Shown piece by piece: positions 1,296-30,132 of a stretch of 64,000 nucleotides of DNA; the stretch's first letter is position 1; every line of letters begins with the position of its first letter. The notes under the pieces are model-generated. The model did not search any database, had not been told where the DNA came from, and saw only the letters and a program-made list of their open reading frames with translations. The DNA lies in IMG/VR virus record IMGVR_UViG_3300029953_000013; one strand, given 5' to 3'. The translations under genes and the position numbers were made by a program. The DNA comes from a virus (taxonomy: Duplodnaviria > Heunggongvirae > Uroviricota > Caudoviricetes).

Positions 1296-1312
1296 TGTGT
1301 GACGATCACACA
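1296..1312. promoter_or_regulatory. palindromic operator-like site TGTGTGACGATCACACA
   Basis: perfect inverted repeat about 23 nt upstream of the 124-1275 start; one of five copies of the TGTGACGATCACA core. Confidence 0.5.
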
Positions 1313-1380
1313 TGATAGTTGAAGAGAAGGGGTTCCGCCCTTCAGTAGACTACCAAAGGACGGAACTTTATAGCAGGAAA

Positions 1381-2913
1381 CTACTCGATCTTGTCCACAT
1401 TGAAGGTGATGCCGGGGAAGCTTGCGTGTTTCCCGCCATAGCCTTTGGTGATGATTGTCCGCAGCTTGGACAGGTGCTTCCACGATTCAAACCGCTTCTT
1501 GCACTCTTCGGAATCTTCGGCATCAGTGATGAGAATGACCGCAGAAGGCTTAATCTTCTCCTTCTCAAATTCATCAATGATGGAGTCGATCCGGGTTCCA
1601 CCGGTCCACACAATGGGTGGAATCTCCTGCTCTGTGACGATCACATCTTCTTCGATCTTGCTGGTGAATACAATGCGCCGGATCTTATGACCCTTCACAT
1701 GCTTGAAAGCATCCAGCACGATCCTGTTTGCCGCCTTCAGTTCTTCAGGACTCATCGACCCCGAAGCGTCAATGCAGATCACCAGTTCCCGAAGGATGTC
1801 AGACTTGGAAGGCGTTGCAGAAGGCATCCGCAAAGACATTCCCATACGAGCCATCCACATATCGTTCCTGCCGATGTTGCGGTAGCTGTATTCCTTCTGA
1901 GGGACGGTATCCCGGATCTTGCGCAGCACTTCGCTGAGACTGATCACCGGTTTCTTGGCGGCTTCGTCCATCTCGCGGGACATCGCGGAACCGTTGCGGC
2001 TGTGAAGCTTCTTGCCGTGACGCTCCATGTAGTCCTTCAGAGCGTTTTCGACCAACTCCCCCATGTCTTCGGGAACATCCGACTTAGGCACACCACCACC
2101 GAAATCTTCACCGAACATGTCGGAAACGTCATCGCCGCCGCCTTCTCCTTCACCACCGGAACCCTCGCCTTCGCCATCCCCGTTTCCTTCGCCGGGTTGG
2201 TCGCCAGAGCCTTCCTGTCCTTCGCCCTGACCTTCCCCCTCTCCTTCGCCTTCCCCCTCTTGTGGGGGCTGCTGGGGCTGTTCCTGGGGCTTCTCGCCGC
2301 TCTGTCCACCTTCGCCCTGTCCCTTCCCCTGTCCTTGCTGGGGCGGTTGGTTGGGGTTCTTGCCCGGTCCTTCCGGGTCATCGGGAAGCAGGGCATAGAC
2401 TTCTTCAGCGGCAAGCCCATGGTACTGCTTGTCATAGGTGCCGCTGGCAGCGATTGCCGCCTCCAGTTTGTCTAACTTATCGCCTTTGAAATGGAAGGGC
2501 GGCAGCTTCAGGATGTCCACTACCATCTCATTGTCCACGATATCGCACGCCGTGATCCACTTCTTCTCGATCCTGTGACCGATCCGATCAGGATGCTTGG
2601 AGATGATGTGAATCAGTTCGTGCAGAATGAGGACCGCACGACCGCAAGCTTCCGAAGGGAACCAAGCCTTGCCTTGCTCGATGGTGTTATTCCTGATCTC
2701 TTCCCACTTGCTGGGGCAGAGCGTAATGGATTTGCCATCGGTCCAGGCAGGGTGCGGGGCGTCTTCAACCGCCAGGATAGGCAGCACGCCCAGCCCTTCG
2801 GTAACGAACGGAACATAGTTCCGCAACATGTCGCAGGTTTCAAGCCAGGGCTGCGGAACCTTGATGTACTTCAGCTTTGGGAACGGCTTCTTGCCGCCCT
2901 GTGCTTTAGGCAT
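1381..2913 (-). CDS. VWA-domain protein with an N-terminal HExxH metallopeptidase-like motif and a Gly/Glu/Gln-rich linker (MoxR partner)
   Basis: LILHELIHII (HExxH); VICIDASGSM (DxSxS MIDAS); GEGEGEG low-complexity tract; RBS GGAGGTTCTTATG. Confidence 0.7.
   Translation of the reverse strand: MPKAQGGKKPFPKLKYIKVPQPWLETCDMLRNYVPFVTEGLGVLPILAVEDAPHPAWTDGKSITLCPSKWEEIRNNTIEQGKAWFPSEACGRAVLILHELIHIISKHPDRIGHRIEKKWITACDIVDNEMVVDILKLPPFHFKGDKLDKLEAAIAASGTYDKQYHGLAAEEVYALLPDDPEGPGKNPNQPPQQGQGKGQGEGGQSGEKPQEQPQQPPQEGEGEGEGEGQGEGQEGSGDQPGEGNGDGEGEGSGGEGEGGGDDVSDMFGEDFGGGVPKSDVPEDMGELVENALKDYMERHGKKLHSRNGSAMSREMDEAAKKPVISLSEVLRKIRDTVPQKEYSYRNIGRNDMWMARMGMSLRMPSATPSKSDILRELVICIDASGSMSPEELKAANRIVLDAFKHVKGHKIRRIVFTSKIEEDVIVTEQEIPPIVWTGGTRIDSIIDEFEKEKIKPSAVILITDAEDSEECKKRFESWKHLSKLRTIITKGYGGKHASFPGITFNVDKIE
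1633..1645. promoter_or_regulatory. intragenic copy of the TGTGACGATCACA palindrome
   Basis: exact 13-mer inside the VWA gene. Confidence 0.3.
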
Positions 2914-2928
2914 AAGAACCTCCGTGGG

Positions 2929-4086
2929 TTACAGGTGAGAAGCTTCGTTCTGTTCCTTGAGCGAACCCAGCAGCAGCTTGGTCCATTCCGCCGCACCCAT
3001 GACCTTCGTGCCCACCGCATTCAGGACCGAATGCTGATAGTCACGGTGGATGGATTCCTTCGCGGTTTCCGTGTAGGTCCGCAAAAGTTCACGACCCACG
3101 ATATCTTTCTTCAACTGCTGGAAGAGCCAAGTCGAAGCGTTCACGAATTGATCATGATCCTCGGCGCTGGAAAGCAGGGAGAAGGCGGTCATCATCTGAA
3201 GCGGACCCATGACCTTCCCCGCCTTGATTGCGGCGTTGGGGAAGACCTCGGCATCGCCCATGAGGATCTTGCTGACCTTCGGAAGATACTTGTAAACCGC
3301 GTAGTAATCCCCGAACGCCTTGCCAGCGACAGGACCGATTGCGGCGTAGGCTTCCTCAAAGACGGTCGTGGGAACGCCGCGCTCCATGCGATACAGACCC
3401 TTGGACAGAAGCTCGAAGGCACGAGCGGAAGGGAAGGGGGTGTTCGGCGCGGGAAGCTCCACGCCATACAGCTTCCGGGGCGTGAACTCCTTGACATGCA
3501 GGTAGTTCTCTTTGGTTTCCTGAATGAAGGCGGCGACCACCGGATGGATCTTCTTGATGCCCTCGTTGAAGGCGTAGTTCAGGAAATCGGTATGCTCGTA
3601 ATCCACGAGGAAGAGATCACCACGATTCAGAATGATCCTGGGCAGGTCTTCCGCCAGTTCGGAGCAGCCCGGAGGGTTGCAAGCGTAGATACGAGCCTGA
3701 TTGTAAACGTGGGGATGCCCCGGAATCACACCTTCCACGAGGAAGTTGCTCAAGCCGGTGAACACCGACCGATCCGGGGAATTGGTCAACTCATCGACCA
3801 TCGAAGGCTGCGTGGGATCGAAGTGAGCCAGCGGCAGCATGACAGTGTGCGTGAACTCCTTGTTCGGCGCGGCACAACCGCTCAACTCGCCAAGCGTCAT
3901 CATACCGGCGTTGAAATAGTTGCCGGAAAAACCGCAGTCCCGCACAACCTGCCGGTAAATCGAAGTCTTGCCCACGCCGGGTTCGCCCATCAAACCCAAG
4001 CAACCCATGTCGCCGGGGTGTTCGATGTAATCCTTGAGGATCGGGGCAACCTTGTTGAAGGCGATGATATTGAGATGGCTGGTCAT
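2929..4086 (-). CDS. MoxR-like AAA+ ATPase
   Basis: Walker A GEPGVGKT; ~385 aa; directly upstream of the VWA partner; GGAG RBS. Confidence 0.7.
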   Translation of the reverse strand: MTSHLNIIAFNKVAPILKDYIEHPGDMGCLGLMGEPGVGKTSIYRQVVRDCGFSGNYFNAGMMTLGELSGCAAPNKEFTHTVMLPLAHFDPTQPSMVDELTNSPDRSVFTGLSNFLVEGVIPGHPHVYNQARIYACNPPGCSELAEDLPRIILNRGDLFLVDYEHTDFLNYAFNEGIKKIHPVVAAFIQETKENYLHVKEFTPRKLYGVELPAPNTPFPSARAFELLSKGLYRMERGVPTTVFEEAYAAIGPVAGKAFGDYYAVYKYLPKVSKILMGDAEVFPNAAIKAGKVMGPLQMMTAFSLLSSAEDHDQFVNASTWLFQQLKKDIVGRELLRTYTETAKESIHRDYQHSVLNAVGTKVMGAAEWTKLLLGSLKEQNEASHL

Positions 4087-4175
4087 TTACTACTCCAGAA
4101 TAGTGTGACAAAGCACACGGTTGGTGAAAGAATGATACCGAAGTTTTTGAAACCTTGTCAAGAACTATTTAAGTG

Positions 4176-4793
4176 CTACTGGAAATGGAGCTTACCGGTG
4201 CGACCGATCCAGACATCACAGCCGCCCCAGGCATGAGCCGACTTGGTGAGCCTGTCTCCCTTTGCTCTATACCCACGATCCCAAAAGCCAGCGCCATGAT
4301 GGTTCCTGGTGAGCCAGAAATCATGTCCGCTCTGCTCTTCATCGAGATTCGCAAGGTCTTCCAGGTTGGCTTCAACGAAGTCCTTGCACTCCTTTTCAGC
4401 CGCCTTCTTATCGTCCACGGTGAAGGAGTCTTCATCGAAGGTGCGCCCCTTCGCCTCATCCTCCATAGGACCGGACCACGCAGCGCAGGACAGGTAGCCT
4501 TGGAAGAAAGCGTAGAAGTCGAATTCCTTGGTGAACATAACGCCGGGTTGAACCTTCAGGACGTATTGCTCCACTTCCTGGCGGGTCTTTGCACGGTGAT
4601 AAGTGCGGAAGTGTCCCGCCACGATGCAGTAGACGTTGTTCGGGGTTCCCCAGTAGGCACCGCCCGAATCATAGCCGCCACTGTCCAAGACAACCTTGAA
4701 GATTGTCACCTTCTCCGTGATCGGAAGGGTCATGTTCGTGTCCCTTCCCATTGGTGCGCCGTAGCGGCTGCTTACATCTGGCATCTTAGGCAT
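4176..4793 (-). CDS. hypothetical protein
   Basis: start refined to MPKMPD with RBS GGGAGAGGCTGAT before the ATG. Confidence 0.5.
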   Translation of the reverse strand: MPKMPDVSSRYGAPMGRDTNMTLPITEKVTIFKVVLDSGGYDSGGAYWGTPNNVYCIVAGHFRTYHRAKTRQEVEQYVLKVQPGVMFTKEFDFYAFFQGYLSCAAWSGPMEDEAKGRTFDEDSFTVDDKKAAEKECKDFVEANLEDLANLDEEQSGHDFWLTRNHHGAGFWDRGYRAKGDRLTKSAHAWGGCDVWIGRTGKLHFQ

Positions 4794-4794
4794 A

Positions 4795-5124
4795 TCAGCC
4801 TCTCCCATAATGAAGTTTGATTCCCTTCGCCACTTCCTGGGCAATGAAGATGTATTCGATTCCGCTATGTGTGAGGTAATAGCAGGGTTCGCCCTTATAC
4901 CGCGACTTATCAAAGCTTACATGCCAGTCACGCCCCAGCCCCAGCCCCGAATCGTCGTACTTGGTGCGAGTGCAGTAACCAAGTTCCTGCTCAAGCCCTT
5001 CCATATCGCAATGCTTGCGCATCGTTTTCAAGGTGATGCTCTTGGAAGCAGCCTTCATTTCATTGATGGCGTCACCATCGCCACATGCTACACAGCTTGT
5101 GAGGTATTTGAATGGCTTCCCCAT
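4795..5124 (-). CDS. hypothetical protein
   Basis: 109 aa ORF in the gene train; weak RBS. Confidence 0.4.
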   Translation of the reverse strand: MGKPFKYLTSCVACGDGDAINEMKAASKSITLKTMRKHCDMEGLEQELGYCTRTKYDDSGLGLGRDWHVSFDKSRYKGEPCYYLTHSGIEYIFIAQEVAKGIKLHYGRG

Positions 5125-5126
5125 GC

Positions 5127-5570
5127 TTACAGCATGAAGGAAAGAAGCGCACTGGTGATGGCGGTATAGACTTGGAGAATTTCACCTTCCACATAGAAGT
5201 CCGTCTGCCCGCCCCGCAGGAAGTCCTTGTAGGTTGGTCCCACGTTGGCATCCTCAAGCTGGCGAACCACGTTGGACTTTACGATCATCCTGGTATCGGT
5301 CATCATCGCGCCCCGATCCGGCGCTTCACCGAAATACACCAGCAGCCAGGGTTCGGTGACGCTCTCGTGCTTCTTGAACTGAAGGCAGATGCCGATCTTG
5401 CCCTCAAACCGCATCGGGGAAGACTGGATGACTTCAGGCGGCTGGCACTCTTCGATCTCACTGCCGCACAGGTAAGCCATCACAGCCATGGCTTGCTTGT
5501 TCACGCCGAAGCTGGGATCACCCATGCGGAAGAAGATCAGGAAGTCGCGGATTTCGTTGTCGTTGGACAT
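5127..5570 (-). CDS. hypothetical protein
   Basis: RBS GAGGCTTTATG. Confidence 0.55.
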   Translation of the reverse strand: MSNDNEIRDFLIFFRMGDPSFGVNKQAMAVMAYLCGSEIEECQPPEVIQSSPMRFEGKIGICLQFKKHESVTEPWLLVYFGEAPDRGAMMTDTRMIVKSNVVRQLEDANVGPTYKDFLRGGQTDFYVEGEILQVYTAITSALLSFML

Positions 5571-5603
5571 AAAGCCTCTTTGGTTGGTTGATGGATGTGA
5601 GAA

Positions 5604-6149
5604 TCACAGCCCGTAAGTTCTGAGAACAGACCCATGATGACATGCGGCATTCAGCACATCCACAGGGATTCCTTCGTTGGGTAGCTTACGCACCCAGCGA
5701 GTGCTGTCAGTGTATTCGTAAATACCAGCGGCAAGCTTCTGCCGACCGCACTGCTTCTTGATGGCTTCCATTGGCACCCCATGCCGGTTGCGCTTGAAAC
5801 AGACTTCAGGGGTTTCAACCAAGATGATCACTTCCACCTTGTAGCCCATGGAACGCGCAGCCACCATGTAGAACTTCCTATCACGGCTACGCAGGTTGGT
5901 GTTATCCACCACGATCTCAGGGATGCCCTTCTTCAAGGCATCCATGAAACGCCGCTGGCACTCACCGTGGGCATAGGGAAGCCGCTCTTCACTTCTCACT
6001 TCCTTGTAGCTCACGCCCTGCTGAAAGGCGATCTTCTCGAAGTAGTGATCCGCCGAAACCACGATGGCTTTGGGGAAATGCTTCTCAATAAAGGTTGTCT
6101 TGCCGGAACCCGAAGGTCCAACCATGACATGTACAGTGCCCTTCGTCAT
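5604..6149 (-). CDS. P-loop kinase (AAA_33 / polynucleotide-kinase-like kinase domain)
   Basis: VMVGPSGSGKTT Walker A near the N-terminus; 181 aa; ATGA overlap with the upstream gene. Confidence 0.55.
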   Translation of the reverse strand: MTKGTVHVMVGPSGSGKTTFIEKHFPKAIVVSADHYFEKIAFQQGVSYKEVRSEERLPYAHGECQRRFMDALKKGIPEIVVDNTNLRSRDRKFYMVAARSMGYKVEVIILVETPEVCFKRNRHGVPMEAIKKQCGRQKLAAGIYEYTDSTRWVRKLPNEGIPVDVLNAACHHGSVLRTYGL

Positions 6150-6796
6150 GCCGCTTCCTCTCCATCTCTTGAATAGCGTTTGTCCTGGTTCGCAAGCTCT
6201 TCCTTGCAGTTGTCTTCAGAGTGATGATAATCAATGATATCATAGCCTTCCCTTTCAAGCAAGCTGGAAGTTTCTTTATAATCTTCGTCAACCAGATCAT
6301 GTAACTTCTCCATGATGGTGACAAGGTGCGATTCCACCAGTTCAAGGAACGCCGTTTCAGGATCGGGGCTTTCATCTTCCCAGTCCAACGTGCAGGAATT
6401 GTAGTGGTAGTAATGGTTGTCGGTGTGCCTGATCTTCGCACTCAGGTTATCAAGCCTGGGTTTGATCGCATCCCATTCAAGCTGGGTGAACTGCTCCTTC
6501 TCGATGAACCGGGGAATGATGATGTCCCAATCGAAGCCGCCTTCCCAGCACATGCCATCACCTTGGCAACAGCCCAGGCTCCAGTAAATGGTTGGGCGTT
6601 TGTCATTCCACCCGCGCTCGGTCCTGGTATCGACTACAAAGCCCAGTTCCTTCAACCTTTCGGGGAAGAAGTCTCTAAGGTCGCATTCGATAGCATCCTC
6701 AAACCAAGACCAGCGATCCTTGTCTAAGAACCGCTTGAGAACCCGCTTCCGGGAATGCTTGGGAAGCTGCTGGAATCTGTAAGCTCTGTCTCCCAT
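6146..6796 (-). CDS. hypothetical acidic protein
   Basis: RBS GGGAGGCAATCATG. Confidence 0.55.
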   Translation of the reverse strand: MGDRAYRFQQLPKHSRKRVLKRFLDKDRWSWFEDAIECDLRDFFPERLKELGFVVDTRTERGWNDKRPTIYWSLGCCQGDGMCWEGGFDWDIIIPRFIEKEQFTQLEWDAIKPRLDNLSAKIRHTDNHYYHYNSCTLDWEDESPDPETAFLELVESHLVTIMEKLHDLVDEDYKETSSLLEREGYDIIDYHHSEDNCKEELANQDKRYSRDGEEAA

Positions 6797-6809
6797 GATT
6801 GCCTCCCGG

Positions 6810-7463
6810 TTACTTGACGTTGGGGTTCTCGATGAAGCCAGCCGCCTTCAGGATCGCAATGCCTTGTGCGGTGGTGCCCTTCTCGTAATTGAAGATGTTT
6901 TCCATGGTTTCCACGAAGTCAGGAATCAACTGCTCCAAGGCATCGTCATACTCGCCGCTCAAGCATTTGTGCTGCTCCCAAAAGCTCTTGCGGATGATGA
7001 CGATGGCAGACTCACCATCCAAATCCGTTTCGCTGAAGTAGAAGTCAGGCGGAAGGATTTGGTTGGGGGAAGCCAGCATGATTTCAGGCTGTATCTGATT
7101 GGTCCTGAGGATGGCTGGCATGAACGCAACGGGAGGTTGCACCGGCTCGGGATCTTTGAAGACTTCTTCATGCTCGGCAGTCACGCATTCCGTTACCGGG
7201 ATGCCCTCACCAAACATGTTCTCCAGGTTGGCGTCTTCAGGCGGCACGATCAAATACTTCACGCCGGAATCCCGCAGCGCCATGAGCGTGAGCTTGTAAC
7301 GGGCATCCTGGGCATTGATGTTCGCATGGTGCAGAAGGTCTTCAACCGGAGCTACCAACCAAGGATCGGAAAGACCCTGGCTTGCAGCGCGCCGCACCAG
7401 CGGAACGAGATCAGCCGCATAGGCTGTGTTGTCTTTACTGAAGGGGAATTCGATGAGTTCCAT
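6810..7463 (-). CDS. hypothetical protein
   Basis: 217 aa; RBS GGTGAGGTAGATATG. Confidence 0.55.
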   Translation of the reverse strand: MELIEFPFSKDNTAYAADLVPLVRRAASQGLSDPWLVAPVEDLLHHANINAQDARYKLTLMALRDSGVKYLIVPPEDANLENMFGEGIPVTECVTAEHEEVFKDPEPVQPPVAFMPAILRTNQIQPEIMLASPNQILPPDFYFSETDLDGESAIVIIRKSFWEQHKCLSGEYDDALEQLIPDFVETMENIFNYEKGTTAQGIAILKAAGFIENPNVK

Positions 7464-7517
7464 ATCTACCTCACCGGCTGTGTGAAAGTCACAAGCATAA
7501 AAGCTCCTTTGACTGCG

Positions 7518-7838
7518 TTACTTGATGAAGGGCTGGTTCAGCATCTTCTCTTCGTTGATGACCCCTGTGTACTGCTTGTTCTGAGGATACATCATGCGCT
7601 TGATCTCGGTCCTCATTTCTTTGGTGGACCCGGCGATGACTTTTGTTGCCGCCACCTCGTTGTTCTTCGCCCAGGAAGGCAGCAGGGAATCCTTCGCATA
7701 GCTGGTCGATTCACCACCAACCACCTTGTGACCGCGCTCGGCACGGCTGGTGGTTATCTTCGGGCTGGTGATGAGGTTGGAACTACTGGCACCGAAGCTC
7801 GGCACCATGACGATTGCCAGGATGAGGATGATACGCAT
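7518..7838 (-). CDS. small secreted protein (signal peptide)
   Basis: hydrophobic N-terminus MRIILILAIVMVPSFGASS; RBS AGGAGCGCTTTATG. Confidence 0.5.
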   Translation of the reverse strand: MRIILILAIVMVPSFGASSSNLITSPKITTSRAERGHKVVGGESTSYAKDSLLPSWAKNNEVAATKVIAGSTKEMRTEIKRMMYPQNKQYTGVINEEKMLNQPFIK

Positions 7839-7929
7839 AAAGCGCTCCTAGTTATGGGTGTGGAAGGACAAACCTTCGATGAAACCGCGCATGAAGGTTT
7901 CCAACTCACGCTTGGTCGTGTGGTCGCTG

Positions 7930-8127
7930 TTAAATCGAATCGAGAATGAATTTCGCTCCGCAGTCGGTGCAGCGGTAAATCAATGCTTCACCTTCCTGCT
8001 TTACCTTCTCCCGTTTCTCGTCCCACCCGATCTCGTAGCAGGCTGCCTTGTCGCCGTGCTTGGTGGATTCCTTGAGCGACCCGTCCTGTCCGCAGGAAGG
8101 GCAGAATTTCACATTCATGCTTTTCAT
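7930..8127 (-). CDS. small zinc-ribbon protein
   Basis: CPSCG...CTDCG; strong RBS AAGGAGGAAAGCCTACATG. Confidence 0.5.
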   Translation of the reverse strand: MKSMNVKFCPSCGQDGSLKESTKHGDKAACYEIGWDEKREKVKQEGEALIYRCTDCGAKFILDSI

Positions 8128-8518
8128 GTAGGCTTTCCTCCTTGGGAATATAGCCGTAAACACGGCATGGAACCATGACATCCACTCCGTTATGCGCAGT
8201 GGCGTAGTTGTGATGGAAGAACCAGAACCGCCCGTCCTTGATCTCAGGCAGCTTGGTAAGGCACTCCTTGGGGATCGCTGGGTCCAAGCCGCCAGAGTAG
8301 CTTGAGCCGCCATTCTCGTGCAGGTAGAAGCTACCTTCACCGAAGCCCTTCATGGTGGTCTGGATCGCATCGTCCCAGTCATAGGTGAACCGCTCAAGCC
8401 TCCCATCAGGGAACCTCACGAAGTCGCCCACCTTTGGACCTTCGATCTCATCTCGCTCCTGGACCCTCTTGAAGAGAATGTCCCGGTCCCGTTCATCCAG
8501 TTCCAAATGCGGCTGCAT
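7988..8518 (-). CDS. hypothetical protein; its 3' ~140 nt overlaps the zinc-ribbon gene
   Basis: 176 aa ORF; the C-terminal tail is Arg/Gly-rich and low complexity. Confidence 0.45.
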   Translation of the reverse strand: MQPHLELDERDRDILFKRVQERDEIEGPKVGDFVRFPDGRLERFTYDWDDAIQTTMKGFGEGSFYLHENGGSSYSGGLDPAIPKECLTKLPEIKDGRFWFFHHNYATAHNGVDVMVPCRVYGYIPKEESLHEKHECEILPFLRTGRVAQGIHQARRQGSLLRDRVGRETGEGKAGR

Positions 8519-8530
8519 GGCGTTCTCCTT

Positions 8531-8995
8531 CTATGCGTTAGCGAGAGCTTGAATGAAAGTGGTGTTGAAGCGTTCCATCATGCCAAACATCTTATCTCGA
8601 TGCGCCTCGATAATCCGGTGCTTGTCCCTGGCTGGCATCTTCTTGTCGATGAGCCACATTGCAACGTTGTCCAAGGTTGGGTCTACTTCTTCGCGGGTCC
8701 ACGCCGAAACCTTGTGGGTTTTCTTGATCCCGCCGCCGAAGTAGAATTCATGAACAATGCCATCACTCTCATTGATGGTGGACTTCCAAATGATCAAGGT
8801 TTGCTTGCGAAAGGCGACCACGCAATAATCCCGGTTGGCAGAGATGAACCCTTGAGCGCTCATGCCGTAAGACTGGCGCGGGGCACCATGAACCGCCATG
8901 AATTTATTGATGAGATCGGTGAAGCTGAAATGCACGCCGAACCCAAGTTCTGGCTGCTCCAGGACCGTGAAGATAATCTGATTGGCAAGGCACAT
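8531..8995 (-). CDS. hypothetical protein
   Basis: RBS GGAGGGTTTATG. Confidence 0.55.
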   Translation of the reverse strand: MCLANQIIFTVLEQPELGFGVHFSFTDLINKFMAVHGAPRQSYGMSAQGFISANRDYCVVAFRKQTLIIWKSTINESDGIVHEFYFGGGIKKTHKVSAWTREEVDPTLDNVAMWLIDKKMPARDKHRIIEAHRDKMFGMMERFNTTFIQALANA

Positions 8996-9062
8996 AAACC
9001 CTCCTGTTCAAACGAAAAGGGCAGGGCACAACGCCCCGCCCCTTGTGATGTTCACACTTGTT

Positions 9063-9802: not shown

Positions 9803-9803
9803 G

Positions 9804-10031: not shown

Positions 10032-10046
10032 AAAAGCCTCACGGAA

Positions 10047-10400: not shown

Positions 10401-10532
10401 GTTGACTCCTTTGGGGCGGCTCAAGCATACCGCATATCCCATGGAATGTCTTGGTTGAGTTCCCGTTCCATCCGGTTGAAGGCGTCTTCCTCACGGTCAA
10501 CCTGGACTGGAACGGATTCAGGAACGGGAGTG

Positions 10533-10545
10533 TGTGATTGCCACA
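10533..10545. promoter_or_regulatory. variant palindrome TGTGATTGCCACA
   Basis: two centre mismatches relative to TGTGATCGTCACA; intergenic; flanked by the GAGTGTG/CACACTC arms. Confidence 0.3.
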
Positions 10546-10550
10546 CTCCA

Positions 10551-11099
10551 CTAGCTCTTGCCCCAAGCGCGGTTCATCAGCGCCAAGGCTCGGGTGTAGG
10601 ACAGTTCACCGGACTTCACAGCCGCCACACAGGCGTTGTTGAACTTGTCGGCAGGGCTGGTGGTGTGCGCCTCACCGAATTCCCTGGTGCGAATGAGGCT
10701 CCAGGGCTTGCGCCAGGAAGACGCCCCGCTGCTGGCACTGGTCTTGGTTTCCTTGAAGCAGCCCCCGCCGAAGACCTGATCGACGTTCGCCGGGGTGCCG
10801 TAGACCACCAGCATTCCTTCGGACAGGGAAAGCGTCTTCAGCAGTTCCTTGTCACCGCCCAGCCTGATCTTGCAGTCTTCCCACAGGTTGGTCATGTCCT
10901 TGGTGATGTCACCGTGCTTGGCACGAATGGCTTCACCCGCCTTCCTCGCCATCTGAAGCCGCATGGTGAGCTTTTCGTACTCGCCTTCCGGCAGCGGCAC
11001 GAGGTTGTCCAGCTTGAGTTCGCGCTTCGGTTTGCGCTCCCTCGGTGCGGGTTTGTAAGCCGCCGCTCTGTTCGCTGCGATGGACTTTGCTTCGGGCAT
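10551..11099 (-). CDS. hypothetical protein
   Basis: 182 aa ORF in the minus-strand gene train. Confidence 0.55.
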   Translation of the reverse strand: MPEAKSIAANRAAAYKPAPRERKPKRELKLDNLVPLPEGEYEKLTMRLQMARKAGEAIRAKHGDITKDMTNLWEDCKIRLGGDKELLKTLSLSEGMLVVYGTPANVDQVFGGGCFKETKTSASSGASSWRKPWSLIRTREFGEAHTTSPADKFNNACVAAVKSGELSYTRALALMNRAWGKS

Positions 11100-11231
11100 A
11101 TTATCCTCTTGTCGGCATAGCCGATTATGCTCTGTTAAAGGGCAGAGCGGAACCCCTGGATGAAAAGAAATCCTTATAGCCGGTCGTGTGATTTCTCACA
11201 AGATCGGCTATCTGGATTACTTCGCCCCTTT

Positions 11232-11807
11232 CTAGGCTACGTTGGAAAGCTTCTTGGCAGTCTTCAGACGGGCAATCGCCTTGTTGTGCATGGCGAAGGA
11301 ACCTTCCAGGGCTTCCAGGTCGTATTTCGCCTTGCGACTCTTGAGCGAACCGGCTTCCACCAGCTTGCGCAGGTTGTCCATCTTCTTCTTGTGTTCATCG
11401 CTGGGAGCCTCGTAGTCGGCAGCGAACCGGCGACTCACCCAGCCGTATTTGTTGAAGATCCCGGACAGGATGGCGATCTCCTTTTCGGGATCGGCGTCGA
11501 TGAAGACCGCCATGCTCTTCGTGCCGGGGAAATACTCCATGATCAGGCACGAATCGCTCAGTTCCGTCAGGAACGTCTTGAGGTAGAAGTGACCGTCCGC
11601 TTCCAGGTCCATCGGCTGCATGTTCCCGTTCTCCTTGACAATGCGATCCAGCGGCTCTTTCAGCTTCGCCAGGGTCACACCTTCGCGGGGATCGGTGATC
11701 GCCTTGGCGGCATTGATCAGCTTCCCGCTCAAGGACTTGAAAACGTCCACAGCCACGGTGAGCTTCGCGGCTTCGATCACGGTGAGGTTGTTGATGGTGT
11801 AGCGCAT
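11232..11807 (-). CDS. hypothetical protein
   Basis: start refined to MRYTINN. Confidence 0.45.
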   Translation of the reverse strand: MRYTINNLTVIEAAKLTVAVDVFKSLSGKLINAAKAITDPREGVTLAKLKEPLDRIVKENGNMQPMDLEADGHFYLKTFLTELSDSCLIMEYFPGTKSMAVFIDADPEKEIAILSGIFNKYGWVSRRFAADYEAPSDEHKKKMDNLRKLVEAGSLKSRKAKYDLEALEGSFAMHNKAIARLKTAKKLSNVA

Positions 11808-11871
11808 GGGGCACCTATTGAATATGGCGGTAGTCATACCGCAGTGTGTTTTTGTTCCTACCAACGATGGA

Positions 11872-12081
11872 TTACAAACCGCAACGCGCCCCATCAAAGG
11901 AACGCACATTGCGCCGATTGTTGCGCCGACTCCCACCACGCACCGGAACTTCGATCTCCATCAACAGCCCGGCGTATGCGTCAAGCTCTGAGATATCCAG
12001 AGCAACCAGCCCTTCGGAAACCTCATCCGCAGGAGTGCGGTCAAGGAGAGTGCATTTGGTGATTCGTGATTGCATGGTCAT
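11872..12081 (-). CDS. hypothetical protein
   Basis: RBS GAGGGGGAAATATCATG. Confidence 0.45.
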   Translation of the reverse strand: MTMQSRITKCTLLDRTPADEVSEGLVALDISELDAYAGLLMEIEVPVRGGSRRNNRRNVRSFDGARCGL

Positions 12082-12093
12082 GATATTTCCCCC

Positions 12094-12288
12094 TCAACCG
12101 CAGCAGCCGACAGCGCAGCAGGTAACATCCGCATGATAGATGGCATCGTATTCGGTCTGGACTTCCGCCCACGGCGCACCTTGGCGCACCAGAGCATCCG
12201 CAACGCCCTTGGCGGCAACGTGCCCCGCGCTGGTGTCCTGGAACTTGCGGGGGAAGACTCCCACAGCAGAAATGATGGACAGCATCAC
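12094..12288 (-). CDS. small Cys-rich protein
   Basis: RBS AAGGAGATCAAGTGATG. Confidence 0.45.
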   Translation of the reverse strand: MMLSIISAVGVFPRKFQDTSAGHVAAKGVADALVRQGAPWAEVQTEYDAIYHADVTCCAVGCCG

Positions 12289-12581
12289 TTGATCTCCTTG
12301 AACTTGAAGCGGATGGAAACGTAGACGTAAACCTCTTCGTTGTCCCTGGTGCTAGTGCGCAGCTTGGCGTTGATGCCCCTCGGGCGCTTCGGAAGGATCG
12401 AAACGTCATAGATGGAGGACAGTAACTCAACCGCATCATCATACGCCAGCTTGGCATCGGAACTGGCACCAGTGGTGCAATCCTGCCATTCGGTGAAGCT
12501 AACGCCGCACCCCTGGAAATACTGGCTGTGATGCTTGCCGTGGTTGATGATCTCGAATTCAGTCACCTTCTTTTTGGGCAT
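12285..12581 (-). CDS. hypothetical protein
   Basis: RBS GGAGGCTTTATGCCC (Met-Pro start). Confidence 0.5.
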   Translation of the reverse strand: MPKKKVTEFEIINHGKHHSQYFQGCGVSFTEWQDCTTGASSDAKLAYDDAVELLSSIYDVSILPKRPRGINAKLRTSTRDNEEVYVYVSIRFKFKEIK

Positions 12582-12591
12582 AAAGCCTCCG

Positions 12592-12786
12592 TTATGCTGA
12601 AAGTTTCTCAGTGTGAGTAGACACAACCTGCAAACGCCGCAGGGTCATTTTCCGGGGCAAATCCAGCACCCACAGAACACAGCACGCCAGCAGGTAAAGC
12701 GCCCCAATGCAGAGTGTCGGTATGGAACCGTAGAAACATCCCGCAAGGATAAGCATGATGGAAACACAGCACGCCACGCATTTCAT
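12592..12786 (-). CDS. small membrane protein
   Basis: two predicted TM segments; RBS AAGGAGTAACCATG. Confidence 0.45.
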   Translation of the reverse strand: MKCVACCVSIMLILAGCFYGSIPTLCIGALYLLACCVLWVLDLPRKMTLRRLQVVSTHTEKLSA

Positions 12787-12788
12787 GG

Positions 12789-12995
12789 TTACTCCTTAAC
12801 CTTGACAGCGCCGGGATGCGGCTGGTTGTGAAGCTGGCGAACCCAAAACAGCATCGACTCCATATACCAATCCTTTTCAGGAAGACCGATGGATGCCACG
12901 AAGCTTGCCTTGTAGCCTTCCTCATGCTTCGCAAAGTAAGCATCGCGCCGGATGTTGAGCATGTAATCACGGTAAAGCGCCCACAGAAAGTCCAT
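12789..12995 (-). CDS. hypothetical protein
   Basis: RBS TAGGAGCCAGCATG immediately after the upstream stop. Confidence 0.45.
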   Translation of the reverse strand: MDFLWALYRDYMLNIRRDAYFAKHEEGYKASFVASIGLPEKDWYMESMLFWVRQLHNQPHPGAVKVKE

Positions 12996-13007
12996 GCTGG
13001 CTCCTAG

Positions 13008-13259
13008 CTAGGTGTAGTTGAGTTGAAGCAGCGGCATACCCATGGCATCCCGCAACCGATTCCTGACTTCCACGGATTCCGGCTTACTCATGTTCTTGGG
13101 GCGATGCAGAACATAGTCCCAATCCTTCGTCTTGCCCTGAATGGCACGCTGGCGATCAGCAACAGACCGCTAGCCGATATAGATTTCCATCTCATCTTCC
13201 AGGATGTGAGTCACCCCGAAGATCACAACCGGTGCGGGACGTTCAATCCCTTTTGGCAT
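13008..13259 (-). pseudogene. 83-codon gene with an in-frame TAG at codon 30 (pseudogene, sequencing error or amber read-through)
   Basis: canonical GGAGGCTTTATGCCA start; MPKGIERPAPVVIFGVTHILEDEMEIYIG-TAG-RSVADRQRAIQGK...LQLNYT; the frame stays open exactly to the next gene's RBS. Confidence 0.35.
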
Positions 13260-13402
13260 AAAGCCTCCTTGTGCTGAATTCAACACTGGTGATCTACCAC
13301 CAGCGCTCAATTCGGAACAAAGGTTGGGAGCCTAAATAAGCGCTCCCATGATACACGTTGCCTGGACGCACTATACTGCCTACACGGTGCTTGTGCATTA
13401 TC

Positions 13403-13432
13403 GCGGAGTTATCCAGCCTCCCGCTCTTTTTT
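13403..13432 (+). terminator. rho-independent terminator-like hairpin with a T-tract (plus strand)
   Basis: GCGGAGttatccagcCTCCCGC followed by TCTTTTTTCG. Confidence 0.4.
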
Positions 13433-13520
13433 CGTCAGTGGTTTGCGCCCACTGTTGCCAGATACAAGTGTTCGACCGCTGGCACACGGTCTGGATGGTA
13501 GCTACCAAAGCGCCGCGATA

Positions 13521-13537
13521 TGTGACGATCACACACA
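13521..13537. promoter_or_regulatory. palindromic operator-like site TGTGACGATCACACACA
   Basis: intergenic; same core as the copies at 1298, 14245 and 17965. Confidence 0.45.
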
Positions 13538-13562
13538 GCGGCTCTTTAGCGTAGCTATCAGG

Positions 13563-13802
13563 CTAGAAGTCACCCACCACGATCTCAGCGCGGGTTTCAC
13601 GCTGCATCTTCATGTGGTCGATGTTGGCAACGGTGATATGCCACTTATCCTTCACGTTCTGGCGAATCTCCTTCATCTTCCGGTCGATGCGCCGTTGACG
13701 TTCCTTGGGGTTGTGAATCGGGGCGCACAGGGTTGCGAGATCGACCGGCGACAGCATCGGTGAAGACCAGTTGGCAAAGAAGTTGGAAAGCGGGTTGGAC
13801 AT
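13563..13802 (-). CDS. hypothetical protein
   Basis: start refined to MSNPLSNFF. Confidence 0.45.
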   Translation of the reverse strand: MSNPLSNFFANWSSPMLSPVDLATLCAPIHNPKERQRRIDRKMKEIRQNVKDKWHITVANIDHMKMQRETRAEIVVGDF

Positions 13803-13839
13803 GAAAAACCTCATGATAATGCCCAAAGGGCAGGGTTAA

Positions 13840-14118
13840 CTAATCGACCAGCAAACGATCAACATCTTCAGCGGTGAGCGTGTCAAACAAGCCCCAACGA
13901 TCCATGGTTGCCAATGCAGCGGCAGCACGATCAATCAGCGCCTTGTGGTTATGCTCGACAAGCGCCAACGCTTCAGCTTTCCGAAGCATTGCAGCTACTT
14001 CAGCTTCACGCCGGTAATAGAGCATGATCGGTGTGGGAAGCAGGGCAGGGGCAGGATTCAGAACAAGCGGCGGCAGCACCACTTTTTCCCGCGCCGGGAG
14101 TGAAGGCAAGGTGAACAT
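13840..14118 (-). CDS. hypothetical protein
   Basis: TGAGATG stop/start overlap with the upstream peptide gene. Confidence 0.45.
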   Translation of the reverse strand: MFTLPSLPAREKVVLPPLVLNPAPALLPTPIMLYYRREAEVAAMLRKAEALALVEHNHKALIDRAAAALATMDRWGLFDTLTAEDVDRLLVD

Positions 14119-14119
14119 C

Positions 14120-14209
14120 TCAGAACCCTTCCACCAGCACCAGCCTGACCACACGAAGGGCAGACAGCCCCATAACCAGATACAGGAAACCATTCAGCCA
14201 CGGATTCAT
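14120..14209 (-). CDS. 29-aa hydrophobic peptide
   Basis: RBS AAAGGAGAGTGCCATG; MNPWLNGFLYLVMGLSALRVVRLVLVEGF. Confidence 0.35.
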   Translation of the reverse strand: MNPWLNGFLYLVMGLSALRVVRLVLVEGF

Positions 14210-14244
14210 GGCACTCTCCTTTTGATGGCATAAAGCCATGTTGA

Positions 14245-14257
14245 TGTGACGATCACA
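14245..14257. promoter_or_regulatory. palindromic operator-like site TGTGACGATCACA
   Basis: about 35 nt upstream of the 14209 start, at the edge of the 1 kb gene-free region. Confidence 0.45.
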
Positions 14258-15133
14258 GACTGCGCTTAGGTAAACCATGGGCAGAAATACAGCGGCATGG
14301 TTTACCAAAGGACAATCAAACGCCCCAGGGATTTACAGCCCCAGGGCGTTCAATCGCAAATGATACTTCGTAAATAGCCCATAGGGTTTATCGGTGATCC
14401 TTACACCCCATATTTTGGAAGGCATCTTGCATAGTGACGGAGTGCTAGTCCATCAGGAAATGACCACGCACCACATGAGAATCCCTTTCATGATCCCAAG
14501 GCATACGCTCACTTCACCTTCTATGCTTTTCCGTTCCATGGTCCCTAAGTTAAATCCGGCTCTCCCGGCTTCGATCCAGGTCCAGTTAGGTGGTATTGCG
14601 ACTATAGCTCACGCCATATCGTTTTTTGGCAAGGCAACGTATCTTACTAAGCCCATCATTTACCGCGACCACCAGCACATAAAGCTTCACCTACCGCCGA
14701 ATGGACGCGCCAACCTACCAGACCATGAACGTGAGATGACATCCCACTAAATCCATGGTGCTACCGCTAGGCGTCACGCAGCACATGAAAAATCGTGCCC
14801 CATGATGGCAGTCTCCAACAAACCAGACTACCGCATTAGATAAACCTAACGGTATGCATTGAGAACTCCCAAGCTATAGACGCATAGCGGATATGTAACC
14901 ATGAGGCTAACGTGGACCACCAGCACCCAAGGAATGAACCCGGATGAAGGTAAAGCACGCCCCAGCGTATGCTAGGCATACCATATGCGGATATTAACTA
15001 AGTGATCGTTTCCCGGCATCCCATGAGATAGCCGAACATATGACCCCGACTTAGCAGGTAAGGCAAAGCCCCAGCACCATATGGCGCAACATACGCTAAA
15101 CAAGGAAACCTTTTGTTACCCTTGGTTCCTTGA

Positions 15134-15170
15134 TTAACTAGCAAATCCTTATTTGCATCATGCTAGTTAA
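15134..15170. repeat. perfect 10-bp inverted repeat TTAACTAGCA...TGCTAGTTAA
   Basis: read directly from the sequence, downstream of the 15229-15888 gene. Confidence 0.5.
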
Positions 15171-15175
15171 TGAAG

Positions 15176-15219
15176 GAACCCGGAACCCTGACAAGGTTAA
15201 GTATCAGGGTTCCGGGTTC
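15176..15219. repeat. perfect 16-bp inverted repeat GAACCCGGAACCCTGA...TCAGGGTTCCGGGTTC
   Basis: arms separated by 12 nt; contains the CCGGAACC iteron; no U-tract on either side. Confidence 0.55.
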
Positions 15220-15228
15220 AAGCTATCG

Positions 15229-15888
15229 TTACTTTCCGGTTTTCTTGACGCCCGCTAGGGTGTAATTCAGCTTGTAACCAAGCTTTTTCAAGGTTTCCTT
15301 GGCTTTTTCAACCTCGCCTAAGAGATTGTTATAAGCAAGGGTAACGTCCACGGGCAATTGAAGCTTTTCAGCCACGATTCCAGCCGCTTCCTTCTTGCTT
15401 TCATCCTTGCGCCATTCGGAAACGTAAGCTTGTGCCGTGCGCTTGGAAACCTTGTTTTCTTCTCTGTCAAGGAACGCCACAAGCTTGTTACCTGCAATGG
15501 CGCTTTCTTTCATGGCTTCAATACCTTTGGTTTCCGTGGCTTCAATGATGATACTGGAAACCTTGACGCCATACCTTGCGATAATGGCGGAAAGATTACC
15601 CGTCATGTTAATTCCCTGCCCTTTGCAGGAATCAAGGAACCCATAAACGGTAGGCTTCAAAGCGGAAACCTTATCATTGAAAGCTTTTGAGGCTAGTTCA
15701 ATGGCTTGGAAACCCTCATTGATGACGTTGAAACCCTGGAAAGCTTTGAAACCCGGAACCGTGGGAACCGTAGGAAGCATTGCCGGAACCGGGTTAATTT
15801 CAACCTTGTTTTCAGCCGCTTTTCCCTTGGTTTCCTTGACTTCCTTGGAACCGGAAAGGGTAACGATAGCGTTATTAGAGTTAGGCAT
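15229..15888 (-). CDS. lysine-rich hypothetical protein flanked by GGAACC iterons
   Basis: RBS GGGGGGCTTTATGCCT; 219 aa. Confidence 0.5.
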   Translation of the reverse strand: MPNSNNAIVTLSGSKEVKETKGKAAENKVEINPVPAMLPTVPTVPGFKAFQGFNVINEGFQAIELASKAFNDKVSALKPTVYGFLDSCKGQGINMTGNLSAIIARYGVKVSSIIIEATETKGIEAMKESAIAGNKLVAFLDREENKVSKRTAQAYVSEWRKDESKKEAAGIVAEKLQLPVDVTLAYNNLLGEVEKAKETLKKLGYKLNYTLAGVKKTGK

Positions 15889-16646
15889 AAAGCCCCCCAT
15901 TGGGAAAGAGTGAATTGAGAATGGTTCTCAAGAGAACCGGTTTAGGTTAACCTCGATCAACCTTGATTAGAGAATAGCCTATCCTTGGAACCCGTCAAGC
16001 GGAAATGTGAAAGAAATTTAGATTCTTTGAAACCCTGACAATTGCCAAGATTCAGGAACCGAAACCCGGAACCGTGGAAAGAGAAAATAGAACCGTGCAC
16101 GCATAGCATGGAACATGCCAGAATCGTTAATATGAACGAATGAGAATGTATCTCTTGAACATGTAGAAAACCGGCATCTTTTGACGTAATTCGAGAAAAC
16201 CGGAAATAGTCCAGGTTAAGCGAAAGGGTTCCTTGTCATGGTTCCGTATCATCGGAACCGTTCAACCTTTCCTAGACCCTGCTAGACCCCATAGAATCGA
16301 TTTGATTTAGTTGAGATTCGTTGAGACTGTGCCGGTTTAATACAAATTACCTTGGTTTTTATACAATTTCCCTTGAAAAAGCTTACATTTGACGAAAAAA
16401 GATGAAATGTAGCGAAATTGCGATAATCACAATTGACAAGACAAAAAATGTATTGTCGGAAATGAAGCATAATAAACTTATAAAAGAAAAAGCATTGTTA
16501 AACTAAAAAGCATTGGTTACAATGCGAGTAAATGAGATGAAGTCTCAAGATTGAGATTGGAGAAAAAGAAATGTTGACAGGAAGGAAATAGTATTGTAGC
16601 GGCTGGGAATGAGAGTGTGTCGCAAAAAGAGGGTAGGATAGCAGAA

Positions 16647-16865
16647 ATGACCATGCACCTGTCAATAGGCAAGATATGCCTAGCCGTTCATTTCATCGGA
16701 AGTGAACTAACCAGGGCAGGGGTTTTCCTGAGACTCATTCTCAAACCCAGGACCATAGGGGTGGTCCAAATCCTCACGGTATCCCAAAATCCCATTCCAC
16801 CTACCTTCCACGAATTTTTTGAGCAACTTTTTATCCGTAGAATCGACTTTGCACTTCCTCGATAG
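16647..16865 (+). CDS. possible small hydrophobic protein on the plus strand
   Basis: ATG preceded by GAGGGTAGG; followed by the bidirectional terminator at 16899. Confidence 0.25.
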   Translation: MTMHLSIGKICLAVHFIGSELTRAGVFLRLILKPRTIGVVQILTVSQNPIPPTFHEFFEQLFIRRIDFALPR

Positions 16866-16898
16866 GCACCTACCCCTTAGCGCGTGAATCCTATACAG

Positions 16899-16921
16899 AA
16901 AAAGCCCACAACGGGCTTTTG
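16899..16921. terminator. bidirectional rho-independent terminator
   Basis: AAAAAGCCCacaacGGGCTTTTT. Confidence 0.55.
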
Positions 16922-17101
16922 TATTATTTCCATGTACTGACTATGTTCCAAGGGATCTCACTGTATTGCTTATAGCGCCAGTACACCCGTCTGTACTCCC
17001 GCATAGGGCAGGATGTATTCCCGCACCCCTTAGCAGATACAAGAACGCCCCCAGTTAAGAGGGCGGGTGGGGGAAGTGTATTGGGTCATGGACCCATACA
17101 G

Positions 17102-17899
17102 TTAAGAAATCACTCCTGTTCTCCGGGGGCTATGAGAGAACAGCTTGGACCCAGGACGGGCTTTCTTGCGCTTCTTCGGGGCGCAGGACGGGCAGTGGTC
17201 GCTTTGGGCGGTAATCAGACCGGTGGACTTGATCCAGTGCTTCTCATCCCCACAGACGCAGGTTACGATCCACATCTTACCGGCACCAGAGCCTTGCTTT
17301 GCTTCCCTAGCCTTTGCAGCCCTGATGATGATCCAGTGCCCTATACGCTTGCCTGAGAGGTCTTTAGCGGCTTCCTGCTGGCGCTTGAGCTTCATCTTTG
17401 CAGCCTTGATCTGATCTCTTAGCGTCTGCTTCTTCTCTTTCTCTCGTTTGGCTATCATGATGGCATCTTCTTTACCACAACCACAGTCTGTCTCGCCGCC
17501 TCGGTGCATCTCCCTTGACTGAAGGGTCCGTAGGGTAGTGGTTGACTCTTTCTCGCAACGCTCACAGAAGACCTTGACCTTTTGTGTGCCGAAGCTCCAT
17601 ACAAGCTCTTGTTGGATTACCACGGCTCCAAATCGTTTACCTACCAGGGAAGGCTTCTCATCGGGTAAGGGCGGTTTGACTATTATAAGATCCCTTGGGT
17701 CGATAAGCTTCAATGTTGGATCACAAACAGGACATGCCGTGATGGATTCATTATTCGCTTGCCGCCTTGATAAATTCATTGTGTTGCCACACGAACAAAC
17801 AGCCGCATACTTGCCGGTGATAGGTGACATACCTGCAATGCTTAATCGCCCCCTTATCAGGGGAAAGGTATTCACCGGGGCGGGGGTTTGCGTAGTCAT
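17102..17899 (-). CDS. Cys-rich protein with multiple CxxC zinc fingers
   Basis: at least 6 CxxC pairs; 265 aa. Confidence 0.5.
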   Translation of the reverse strand: MTTQTPAPVNTFPLIRGRLSIAGMSPITGKYAAVCSCGNTMNLSRRQANNESITACPVCDPTLKLIDPRDLIIVKPPLPDEKPSLVGKRFGAVVIQQELVWSFGTQKVKVFCERCEKESTTTLRTLQSREMHRGGETDCGCGKEDAIMIAKREKEKKQTLRDQIKAAKMKLKRQQEAAKDLSGKRIGHWIIIRAAKAREAKQGSGAGKMWIVTCVCGDEKHWIKSTGLITAQSDHCPSCAPKKRKKARPGSKLFSHSPRRTGVIS

Positions 17900-17964
17900 G
17901 CCTTAGCATATACACAAATAGCCCCCACTGTCAAGTAGGAGCTATCTGTTTATTCTGGTTGTTA

Positions 17965-17977
17965 TGTGATCGTCACA
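17965..17977. promoter_or_regulatory. palindromic operator-like site TGTGATCGTCACA
   Basis: about 65 nt upstream of the 17899 start. Confidence 0.45.
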
Positions 17978-29523: not shown

Positions 29524-29536
29524 GGTTGTTACCATC
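29524..29536 (-). promoter_or_regulatory. GATGGTAACAACC promoter-like motif
   Basis: about 17 nt upstream of the RNA ligase ATG. Confidence 0.35.
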
Positions 29537-30126: not shown

Positions 30127-30132
30127 ATTATT

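Follow-up and report, generated by a model that had tools for sequence, protein, structure and literature searches.

A 64,000-nucleotide stretch of the caudovirus record IMGVR_UViG_3300029953_000013 (hereafter the window), from an uncultured phage of ~100-120 kb, carries a strongly selected dyad-symmetric element, TGTGA-N3-TCACA, together with a TGTGA-N4-TCACA form. The element is highly enriched and its arms are invariant. It is biased towards non-coding DNA, its copies inside genes are under selection, and its positions are conserved at orthologous places in a related phage. There is, in our estimation, an even chance that these palindromes are genome-wide sites on duplex DNA for one two-fold symmetric phage protein, or for a pair of paralogues. 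A ParB/Noc-like protein encoded beside the strongest site is the favoured candidate for that role.

Abundance and sequence of the palindromes

The five exact copies of TGTGACGATCACA listed in a preliminary description of the window were all retrieved (1298-1310, 1633-1645, 13521-13533, 14245-14257 and 17965-17977, the last in the opposite orientation). Their excess over the shuffled expectation is strong, with a mean of 0.01 copies per dinucleotide shuffle and 0/100 shuffles reaching five. As had been noticed, the first copy is part of a longer symmetry, which proved to be a perfect 17-bp palindrome, TGTGTGACGATCACACA (1296-1312). A variant at 10533-10545, intergenic and embedded in the longer palindrome GGAGTGTGGCAATCACACACTCC, exists as well, with one arm mismatch rather than the two originally counted.

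When the spacer was left free, 17 TGTGA-N3-TCACA sites were found, against 0.07 expected, spread over the whole window, and TGTGA-N4-TCACA is present five times, again for 0.07 expected. The resulting 22 perfect sites in 64 kb represent a lower bound for the whole genome. Sites with one arm mismatch are also enriched (N3, 6 versus 2.0 expected; N4, 11 versus 2.1 expected), which amounts to about 13 sites beyond expectation. No TGTGA/TCACA pairs with spacers of 0-2, 5 or 7-12 nt were detected in the window. The likeness to CRP/FNR operators pointed out earlier thus holds for the half-sites and fails for the spacing, as TGTGA-N6-TCACA, the CRP spacing, occurs a single time (25761-25776), in a divergent intergenic region 70 nt upstream of a GerE-type gene.

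Nine of the 17 N3 sites lie to the right of 18 kb, where no copy had been thought to occur; that statement is true for the CGA spacer only, to which the left bias is restricted. The sites number 0.5 per kb to the left of the 18-kb mark and 0.28 per kb beyond it. Since the family extends beyond the left 18 kb and spans the whole window, it does not define the regulon of early genes that had been proposed.

Eight control palindromes of similar composition have no copies in the window. We also ranked all 5-bp inverted repeats with a 3-nt spacer; TGTGA came first with 17 copies and the runner-up had 3, indicating that there are no covarying stems. All ten arm positions are fixed across the 22 sites, with no compensatory stem changes in the window. 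The N3 spacers take 12 different sequences, with a slight pyrimidine preference beside the arm by our own count; no conservation was found in the flanks of the sites and no pattern in spacer orientation. The sites do not have the features of intrinsic terminators, with 2 G-C pairs among the 5 in the stem and no T run after it. A literature search for the motif string returned nothing relevant.

Positions, selection within genes and conservation

In a window that is at most 19% non-coding, 13 of the 22 perfect sites fall outside coding DNA or on gene ends (P = 4.5e-5), and seven have a start codon 17-65 nt downstream. Three copies had earlier been placed 23-65 nt before start codons; those at 1298, 14245 and 17965 were measured at 22, 51 and 65 nt upstream of called starts. 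The start behind the first of them is the ATG of the gene for the ParB/Noc-like protein, on the minus strand at 124-1275. The second, which faces the ATG at 14193, shares 21 nt at 90% identity with the 13520 copy. The third abuts the stop codon of 17978-18313 and is followed, after 31 nt, by the -35 hexamer of a sigma-70-type promoter, TTGACA-18-TATGCT (17905-17934, minus strand), which precedes an HNH-like gene (17102-17899). Similarly, the N3 site at 5596-5608 is 25 nt before the next ATG, an intergenic N3 site at 7481-7493, abutted by a TATGCT hexamer, precedes the ATG at 7463 by 17 nt, and the N4 site at 41668-41681 is 25 nt before the ATG at 41642, with a TATCAT hexamer overlapping its first base. 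The GTG with which the ribonucleotide reductase (RNR) gene starts is part of one N3 site (53507-53519).

At two N3 sites, the TGA of an arm doubles as the stop codon of the preceding gene, namely the AAA_33 kinase gene (5596) and the RNR gene (51615-51627); the latter site is followed by a terminator hairpin and then by a GGTGGTAA element. The N3 site at 9044-9056 is 6 nt past a stop codon and immediately 5' of a terminator-like hairpin. The succession of stop codon, site and terminator hairpin was thus found twice, and repression of initiation cannot explain those two sites. Further non-coding copies are the intergenic N4 sites at 11187-11200 and 45187-45200, an N3 site in a region rich in tRNA genes and poor in open reading frames (ORFs; 40583-40595) and the exact copy at 13521, at the tip of a ~60-nt imperfect hairpin (13490-13565). 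An N4 site with one arm mismatch, GTGTGctttGTCACAC (4104-4117), is part of the leader of a MoxR-like ATPase gene, at about +8 to +23 past a sigma-70-type promoter, TTGACA-18-TATCAT (4132-4161, minus strand; 11/12 positions). Good sigma-70 promoters number only three in the 64 kb.

The other nine perfect sites are inside genes for unrelated proteins. In addition to the copy at 1633, correctly described as intragenic, which corresponds to the codons D-V-I-V-T of the DUF2201/VWA gene, these are the N3 sites at 27218-27230 (metallophosphatase gene), 38096-38108, 49618-49630 (gene of a 684-aa protein), 57848-57860 (putative portal gene, rightward), 59965-59977 and 62588-62600 (both in rightward structural genes), and the N4 sites at 21485-21498 and 36417-36430 (NAMPT gene). 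Resampling of synonymous codons with preservation of the proteins gave 0.10 N3 sites and 0.03 N4 sites within genes, for seven and two observed (9 versus 0.13 altogether), and we conclude that the intragenic copies are selected at the nucleic-acid level. Codon or peptide bias is thereby ruled out as their source. Insertion of a mobile 13-bp unit was also rejected, because 13 bp would disrupt the reading frames. Eight of the nine sites read xxT GTG Axx xTC ACA; the other allowed frame, which requires Cys and His, is used at 38096 only, and the third frame has a stop codon.

A DNA search of INPHARED in near and distant modes yielded no match to the window, and IMG/VR scans with the 383-aa ParB/Noc-like protein, the DUF2201 protein and the terminase alignment yielded no relatives. 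Relatives identified through their terminases, with 46-69% identity, are metagenomic contigs of 118-122 kb, one of them from Trout Bog Lake. Two N3 sites were found in 13.5 kb of the closest one, L001, whose terminase is 69% identical. The sites of its portal gene are not at codons orthologous to those of the portal site in the window, indicating site turnover.

In a 119-kb relative (L003 and L010, terminase 63% identical), we found four perfect N4 sites and nine N4 sites with one mismatch (1.2 expected), whose consensus is the 14-bp sequence TGTGAC-NN-GTCACA; N3 sites are absent from L003 and L010. Although the DNAs of the two phages do not align by BLAST, six site positions are common to them. 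They comprise the stop codon of the AAA_33 gene (5596 in the window, 6113 in L010), the stop codon of the RNR gene, where L003 has a one-mismatch N4 site, and the MoxR leader just past a sigma-70-type promoter, the site of the relative being at +4 to +17 after TTGACA-17-TATCGT. The other three are found upstream of the ParB-like gene, at the KHVxxHK codons of the DUF2201 gene, and past the terminator of a second ParB-like gene. At the DUF2201 position, the window has an N4 site with one arm mismatch (1686-1699, codons KHVKGHK) and the 119-kb relative a perfect N4 site. Near-sites were detected upstream of the L010 ParB-like orthologue and at the syntenic position of L009, and the promoter of the second ParB-like paralogue in L010 has a site overlapping its -10 region.

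The full motif was not found in more distant relatives (terminase 55-66% identical). They contain eight GTGA-N3-TCAC sequences for 1.3 expected, an excess that we treat as weak because the five copies with gene calls are all intragenic and this motif is only 8 bp long.

Another family of palindromes, (G)CGTGAC(A)-N-(T)GTCACG(C), i.e. GTGA-N6-TCAC, was noted in the 119-kb relative, at 1174-1189, 6132-6149 and 8341-8358 of L010. Each copy lies between a promoter, or a palindrome of the first family, and the ribosome-binding site, and each is predicted to form a stable hairpin of 7-8 bp at the 5' end of the mRNA.

Candidate binding proteins and possible functions

The combination of invariant arms and a free spacer without covariation is characteristic of a symmetric protein bound to duplex DNA, in agreement with the dimeric binder suggested in the preliminary description. 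The candidates named there did not include the 383-aa protein encoded on the minus strand at 124-1275, whose gene adjoins the longest palindrome; an exact copy is located 335 nt upstream of the latter. This protein has no match in Pfam, in a sequence search of the PDB or in a profile search against the PDB, and we place it in the ParB/Noc fold because of fold and profile-profile comparisons only. Its AlphaFold model, computed from a 52-sequence alignment, has a pLDDT of 95.5 (an earlier model from 3 sequences, with a pLDDT of 53, was not used), and the top four Foldseek matches to this model correspond to the N-terminal domain plus the DNA-binding domain of Noc, with probabilities of 0.90-0.99. 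An hhalign comparison with residues 50-187 of Spo0J, whose sequence was entered by hand, gave E = 5e-4 and aligned the GxxRxxA and NxxR motifs and the helix-turn-helix (HTH). G148, R149, R151, N185, R188 and E194 are invariant in the 52 homologues. The protein appears to have the architecture of the ParB family, with an N-terminal nucleoside triphosphate (NTP)-binding domain of ParB/Srx fold bearing the GxxRxxA and ENxxR-type motifs followed by an HTH-like region, and we favour it as the best candidate binder.

A second ParB/Noc-like paralogue of 507 aa, 29% identical to the 383-aa protein, is encoded 6.5 kb farther left, next to an AAA+ ATPase gene in the same phage, about 5-6.4 kb to the left of window position 1 (11726-13249 of L006), and in L010 (19580-20944). 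The two N2 forms of the palindrome that were found in the same phage just left of the window are associated with this gene: TGTGATGTCACA is inside it and TGTGAGATCACA is 97 nt after it, the latter being kept in the 119-kb relative.

No ParA/MinD-type partner was matched among the neighbours, which include MoxR-type and AAA+ ATPases and a VWA protein, and no cNMP-binding/HTH_Crp regulator among the ~70 window ORFs scanned with Pfam. Of the two binders put forward earlier, the LuxR-type protein of 69 aa (25847-26056, plus strand) is a genuine GerE-type HTH protein (Pfam 3e-18) and a possible second choice. The multi-HTH protein of 157 aa, delimited here at 32909-33382 on the minus strand rather than 32909-33340, does have two or three HTH matches, but they are weak; it is a further candidate.

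We infer that the ligand is a protein bound to duplex DNA and that it would act as a repressor. In the mechanism that we propose, each subunit would read one TGTGA(Y) half-site, and the spacer would be free in sequence because it is not contacted. Non-coding copies near promoters, in leaders and at gene junctions could then be operators or roadblocks for the downstream gene, and the gene of the likely binder would be among those controlled, with autoregulation from the 17-bp palindrome at 1296-1312. The repressor-operator geometry initially proposed fits several of the non-coding copies, but not the nine intragenic sites or the two sites at stop codons and terminators. The intragenic copies, kept through synonymous codons, could serve as extra binding or loading sites, in which case the action of the protein would extend over the entire genome instead of being limited to initiation. 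That N3 and N4 sites coexist might be accounted for by HTH domains that dock independently, as in the ParB family, or by two paralogues that differ in spacing preference.

Several observations weigh against such a protein, the main difficulty being that one and the same genome shows selection for N3 as well as for N4 spacers. With the N2 forms just left of the window and the 14-bp form of the relative, this range is unusual for a rigid dimer. Moreover, the half-site centres are 8-9 bp apart and hence not on the same side of the helix. The two sites between a stop codon and a terminator hairpin are not in an operator position, and the motif is missing from the available 15 kb of a relative whose ParB-like orthologue is 36% identical. 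Finally, G·U pairing on the sense strand is kept in 7/17 one-mismatch variants of the window, for 1/6 expected by chance, which hints at RNA.

A more specific proposal, which we advance with considerable reserve, is that the palindromes (~35) are loading sites for phage ParB/Noc-like, NTP-dependent clamps that slide along the genome of a lytic phage. The two diverged paralogues would share the TGTGA half-site, perhaps with different spacing preferences, and the sliding clamps would time or silence transcription, or organise the DNA, as a KorB-like long-range system in a virus.

By comparison with known systems, the closest precedent for the symmetric protein sites proposed here is the 17-bp dyad repeat TGTTCGG-N3-CCGAACA of Cluster O mycobacteriophages such as Corndog, present in 34 copies in a ~70-kb genome (PMC4351075). 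The function of these repeats is not known; the authors of that study predicted the binding of a dimeric protein and a process other than transcription initiation (PMC4351075). Both elements consist of invariant inverted arms around 3 variable bp, occur in tens of copies genome-wide in lytic-looking phages, between and inside genes, have approximately one-third of their copies within genes and the rest in intergenic regions or near gene starts, and lack a meaningful orientation; Cluster O phages also encode proteins with ParB-like domains (PMC4351075). The two differ in arm sequence and length (7 bp in Cluster O, 5-6 bp here) and in their spacers, mostly TTT/AAA in Cluster O, whereas here they are free and N4 and N2 forms exist alongside N3. 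In addition, the phage and host lineages are unrelated, and neither the same repeat nor a homologous phage is involved.

As mechanistic models, the closest analogues appear to be KorB with its OB operators, and Noc. The OB sites of plasmid RK2 are 13-bp palindromes found over a ~60-kb replicon, at promoters, distant from them and inside genes, a scatter comparable to that described here. KorB, a CTP-dependent clamp (PMC11790492), is a ParB-family global repressor whose own operon carries a site, as would be the case for the 383-aa protein. The present system differs in that neither a ParA/IncC nor a KorA partner was seen, in its variable spacer length, and in belonging to a phage and not a plasmid. 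Noc of Bacillus subtilis has ~70 palindromic 14-bp sites in coding and non-coding DNA, and thus shares with our candidate dispersed palindromic sites and a ParB-family binder, in addition to being the best Foldseek match of the 383-aa protein. However, Noc anchors DNA at the membrane in the control of division, and there is no sign of such a role in a phage. The stoperators of Cluster A mycobacteriophages, bound by L5 gp71, are 13-bp sites, 20-30 per genome, located in short intergenic gaps and some genes, through which one phage protein exerts silencing. Unlike the symmetric sites described here, for which no fixed orientation was found, they are asymmetric and oriented with transcription, and the phages that carry them are temperate and have an immunity repressor, whereas no integrase or repressor was seen here.

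This work adds three elements to what is known of dispersed dyad repeats in phages: the quantitative demonstration that intragenic dyad copies are held by synonymous-codon selection, the conservation of site positions across phages whose DNA no longer aligns, and a concrete candidate binder of the ParB/Noc family encoded beside the strongest site. If the ParB link is true, long-range regulation of the CTP-clamp type, so far a feature of plasmids and chromosomes, would also operate in lytic phages, and sliding clamps might explain the dispersed dyad repeats of other phages, such as those of Cluster O. If it is false, the sites would still offer clear-cut material in the search for a new global regulator of phages. 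Because of the 10 fixed bases and ~22 sites, read-outs of chromatin immunoprecipitation (ChIP) or DNA affinity purification sequencing (DAP-seq) on this phage should be unambiguous.

Among the alternatives to a protein on duplex DNA, the least unlikely, if still a doubtful one, is that the motif acts as an RNA hairpin, UGUGA-NNN(N)-UCACA, with a 5-bp stem and a tri- or tetraloop, read by an RNA-binding protein or RNase of the phage for the control of processing, stability or translation. The NYN-domain protein at 50697-51200 might be such a reader, and its gene is present both in this phage and in relatives, but these include relatives devoid of the motif. A hairpin would accommodate loops of both 3 and 4 nt, and it is part of the minimum-energy structure in five of the six local contexts that we folded. 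It would also suit the sites in 5' leaders near predicted transcript starts, those that overlap a start codon (53507) or a stop codon (5596 and 51615), and those directly 5' of terminators. The wobble pairs mentioned above are accompanied by 7/8 transitions on the sense-compatible side in the window; however, the same signal is 0/14 in the relatives, in a partly manual count. The stem is very weak, all ten of its positions are fixed without any compensatory change, and the loop, usually what RNA-binding proteins read, is the variable part. Hairpins might alternatively form in single-stranded DNA, as promoters of an N4-type virion RNA polymerase or as signals for replication priming or nicking, which we consider most improbable. 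Early promoters of N4 have a 5-bp stem and a 3-nt loop, and this geometry is indeed found in 17 sites, with a 7-bp stem at 1296-1312; in the exact copies the central base on the template strand is a purine, and start codons are 24-58 nt away. Nevertheless, a 5-bp stem is too short for unaided extrusion, no giant RNA polymerase was found, the 1778-2021-aa proteins of the relatives being collagen-like tail fibres, and the copy at 17965 would fire antisense. Furthermore, at least 22 sites are distributed along the 64 kb, many of them in genes and in both gene orientations, rather than a few at one end.

It is improbable that the sites are bound by a host regulator, of CRP/FNR type or other, coupling the phage programme to host physiology. 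The half-sites are identical to those of the CRP consensus, a perfect TGTGA-N6-TCACA precedes the GerE-type gene, and GTGA-N6-TCAC palindromes are found in three leaders of the 119-kb relative. However, 22/23 perfect sites have N3 or N4 spacers, which put the half-sites on different helix faces for a CRP dimer, and the selection acting on intragenic sites also argues against a host factor. That same selection would agree with a genome-marking signal outside gene expression, for instance in self-recognition for recombination, protection from a nuclease or organisation of the DNA for packaging. The authors of the Cluster O study came to the same conclusion for their own repeats (PMC4351075), and the roughly even density of approximately one site per 3 kb and the turnover of portal-gene sites between close relatives are in keeping with it. 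We nonetheless see only a slim chance of this, given the strong non-coding bias of the sites and the six promoter-proximal or junction positions conserved between phages.

The phage and other elements in the window

The window belongs to a new phage of bog-lake metagenomes and encodes a terminase, a class II RNR, NAMPT, ClpP, a T4 Rnl1-like RNA ligase, an NYN RNase and HNH and GIY-YIG endonucleases, as well as 12 tRNAs and one tmRNA. Genes are directed leftward up to ~54.6 kb, and the structural genes beyond are directed rightward. The same phage was found in three other samples and on a 99.9-kb contig, with too few single-nucleotide polymorphisms between its contigs to be informative. A genome scan for the host produced an unrelated Balneolaceae as its sole match. 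An Rfam scan identified only the tRNAs and the tmRNA; the latter is at 43552-43870 on the minus strand (84.5 bits), with the tag ANTNKKSNVVAFRRYRRAGAFAVAA, and the 12 tRNA genes are dispersed over an ORF-poor stretch, at 32729-46771.

Another repeated element, (T/G)GGTGGTA(A/G), is strand-biased, with 29 occurrences on the minus strand (for example at 54355, 53569, 51560, 50498, 48007, 38438, 31678 and 22241) and 5 on the plus strand (including 63473 and 54789). It is usually located 20-50 nt upstream of start codons, and it is kept in L003 and L004 before the RNR gene and before the gene after RNR. It has no -35 partner and probably represents a promoter element of the phage itself.

The imperfect hairpin at 13490-13565, which has the exact palindrome at its tip, comprises ~26 pairs (-33.9 kcal/mol, z -4.7), with no T run after it. 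The sequence CTTTGGTAG/CTAAAGAG is part of its arms and is also present in hairpins beside the 1298 and 14245 copies. As CTTTGGTAG belongs to the stems of these neighbouring hairpins, it was ruled out as a partner promoter motif of the exact copies.

The stretch at 14300-17900, bracketed by the exact palindromes at 14245 and 17965, has a low G+C content (46-49%), few convincing ORFs and several hairpins, and it may be a mobile or hypervariable insert. The HNH-like gene at 17102-17899 has a poor codon fit, and its mRNA may be leaderless, since the ATG is only 5 nt past the -10 hexamer. Homing-endonuclease genes are present at 29536-30201 (HNH, minus strand) and 36703-37521 (GIY-YIG, plus strand), the latter on the opposite strand to the NAMPT and phosphoribosyltransferase (PRTase) genes that flank it.

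An RNA-repair set consists of the AAA_33 kinase (5604-6149), the metallophosphatase (26957-27592) and the T4 Rnl1-like ligase (28375-29508), and a NAD-salvage cluster at 34670-38405 comprises NADAR, NAMPT and PRTase genes. Such sets are typical of large lytic phages that counter the tRNA-cleaving and NAD-depleting defences of their hosts. Directly upstream of the ParB/Noc-like gene, at 1381-4086, are the genes of a bpMoxR-type ATPase and a DUF2201 metallopeptidase/VWA pair, and the three-gene order MoxR, DUF2201-VWA, ParB-like is kept in several relatives, namely L009, L010 and the P0030 phage.

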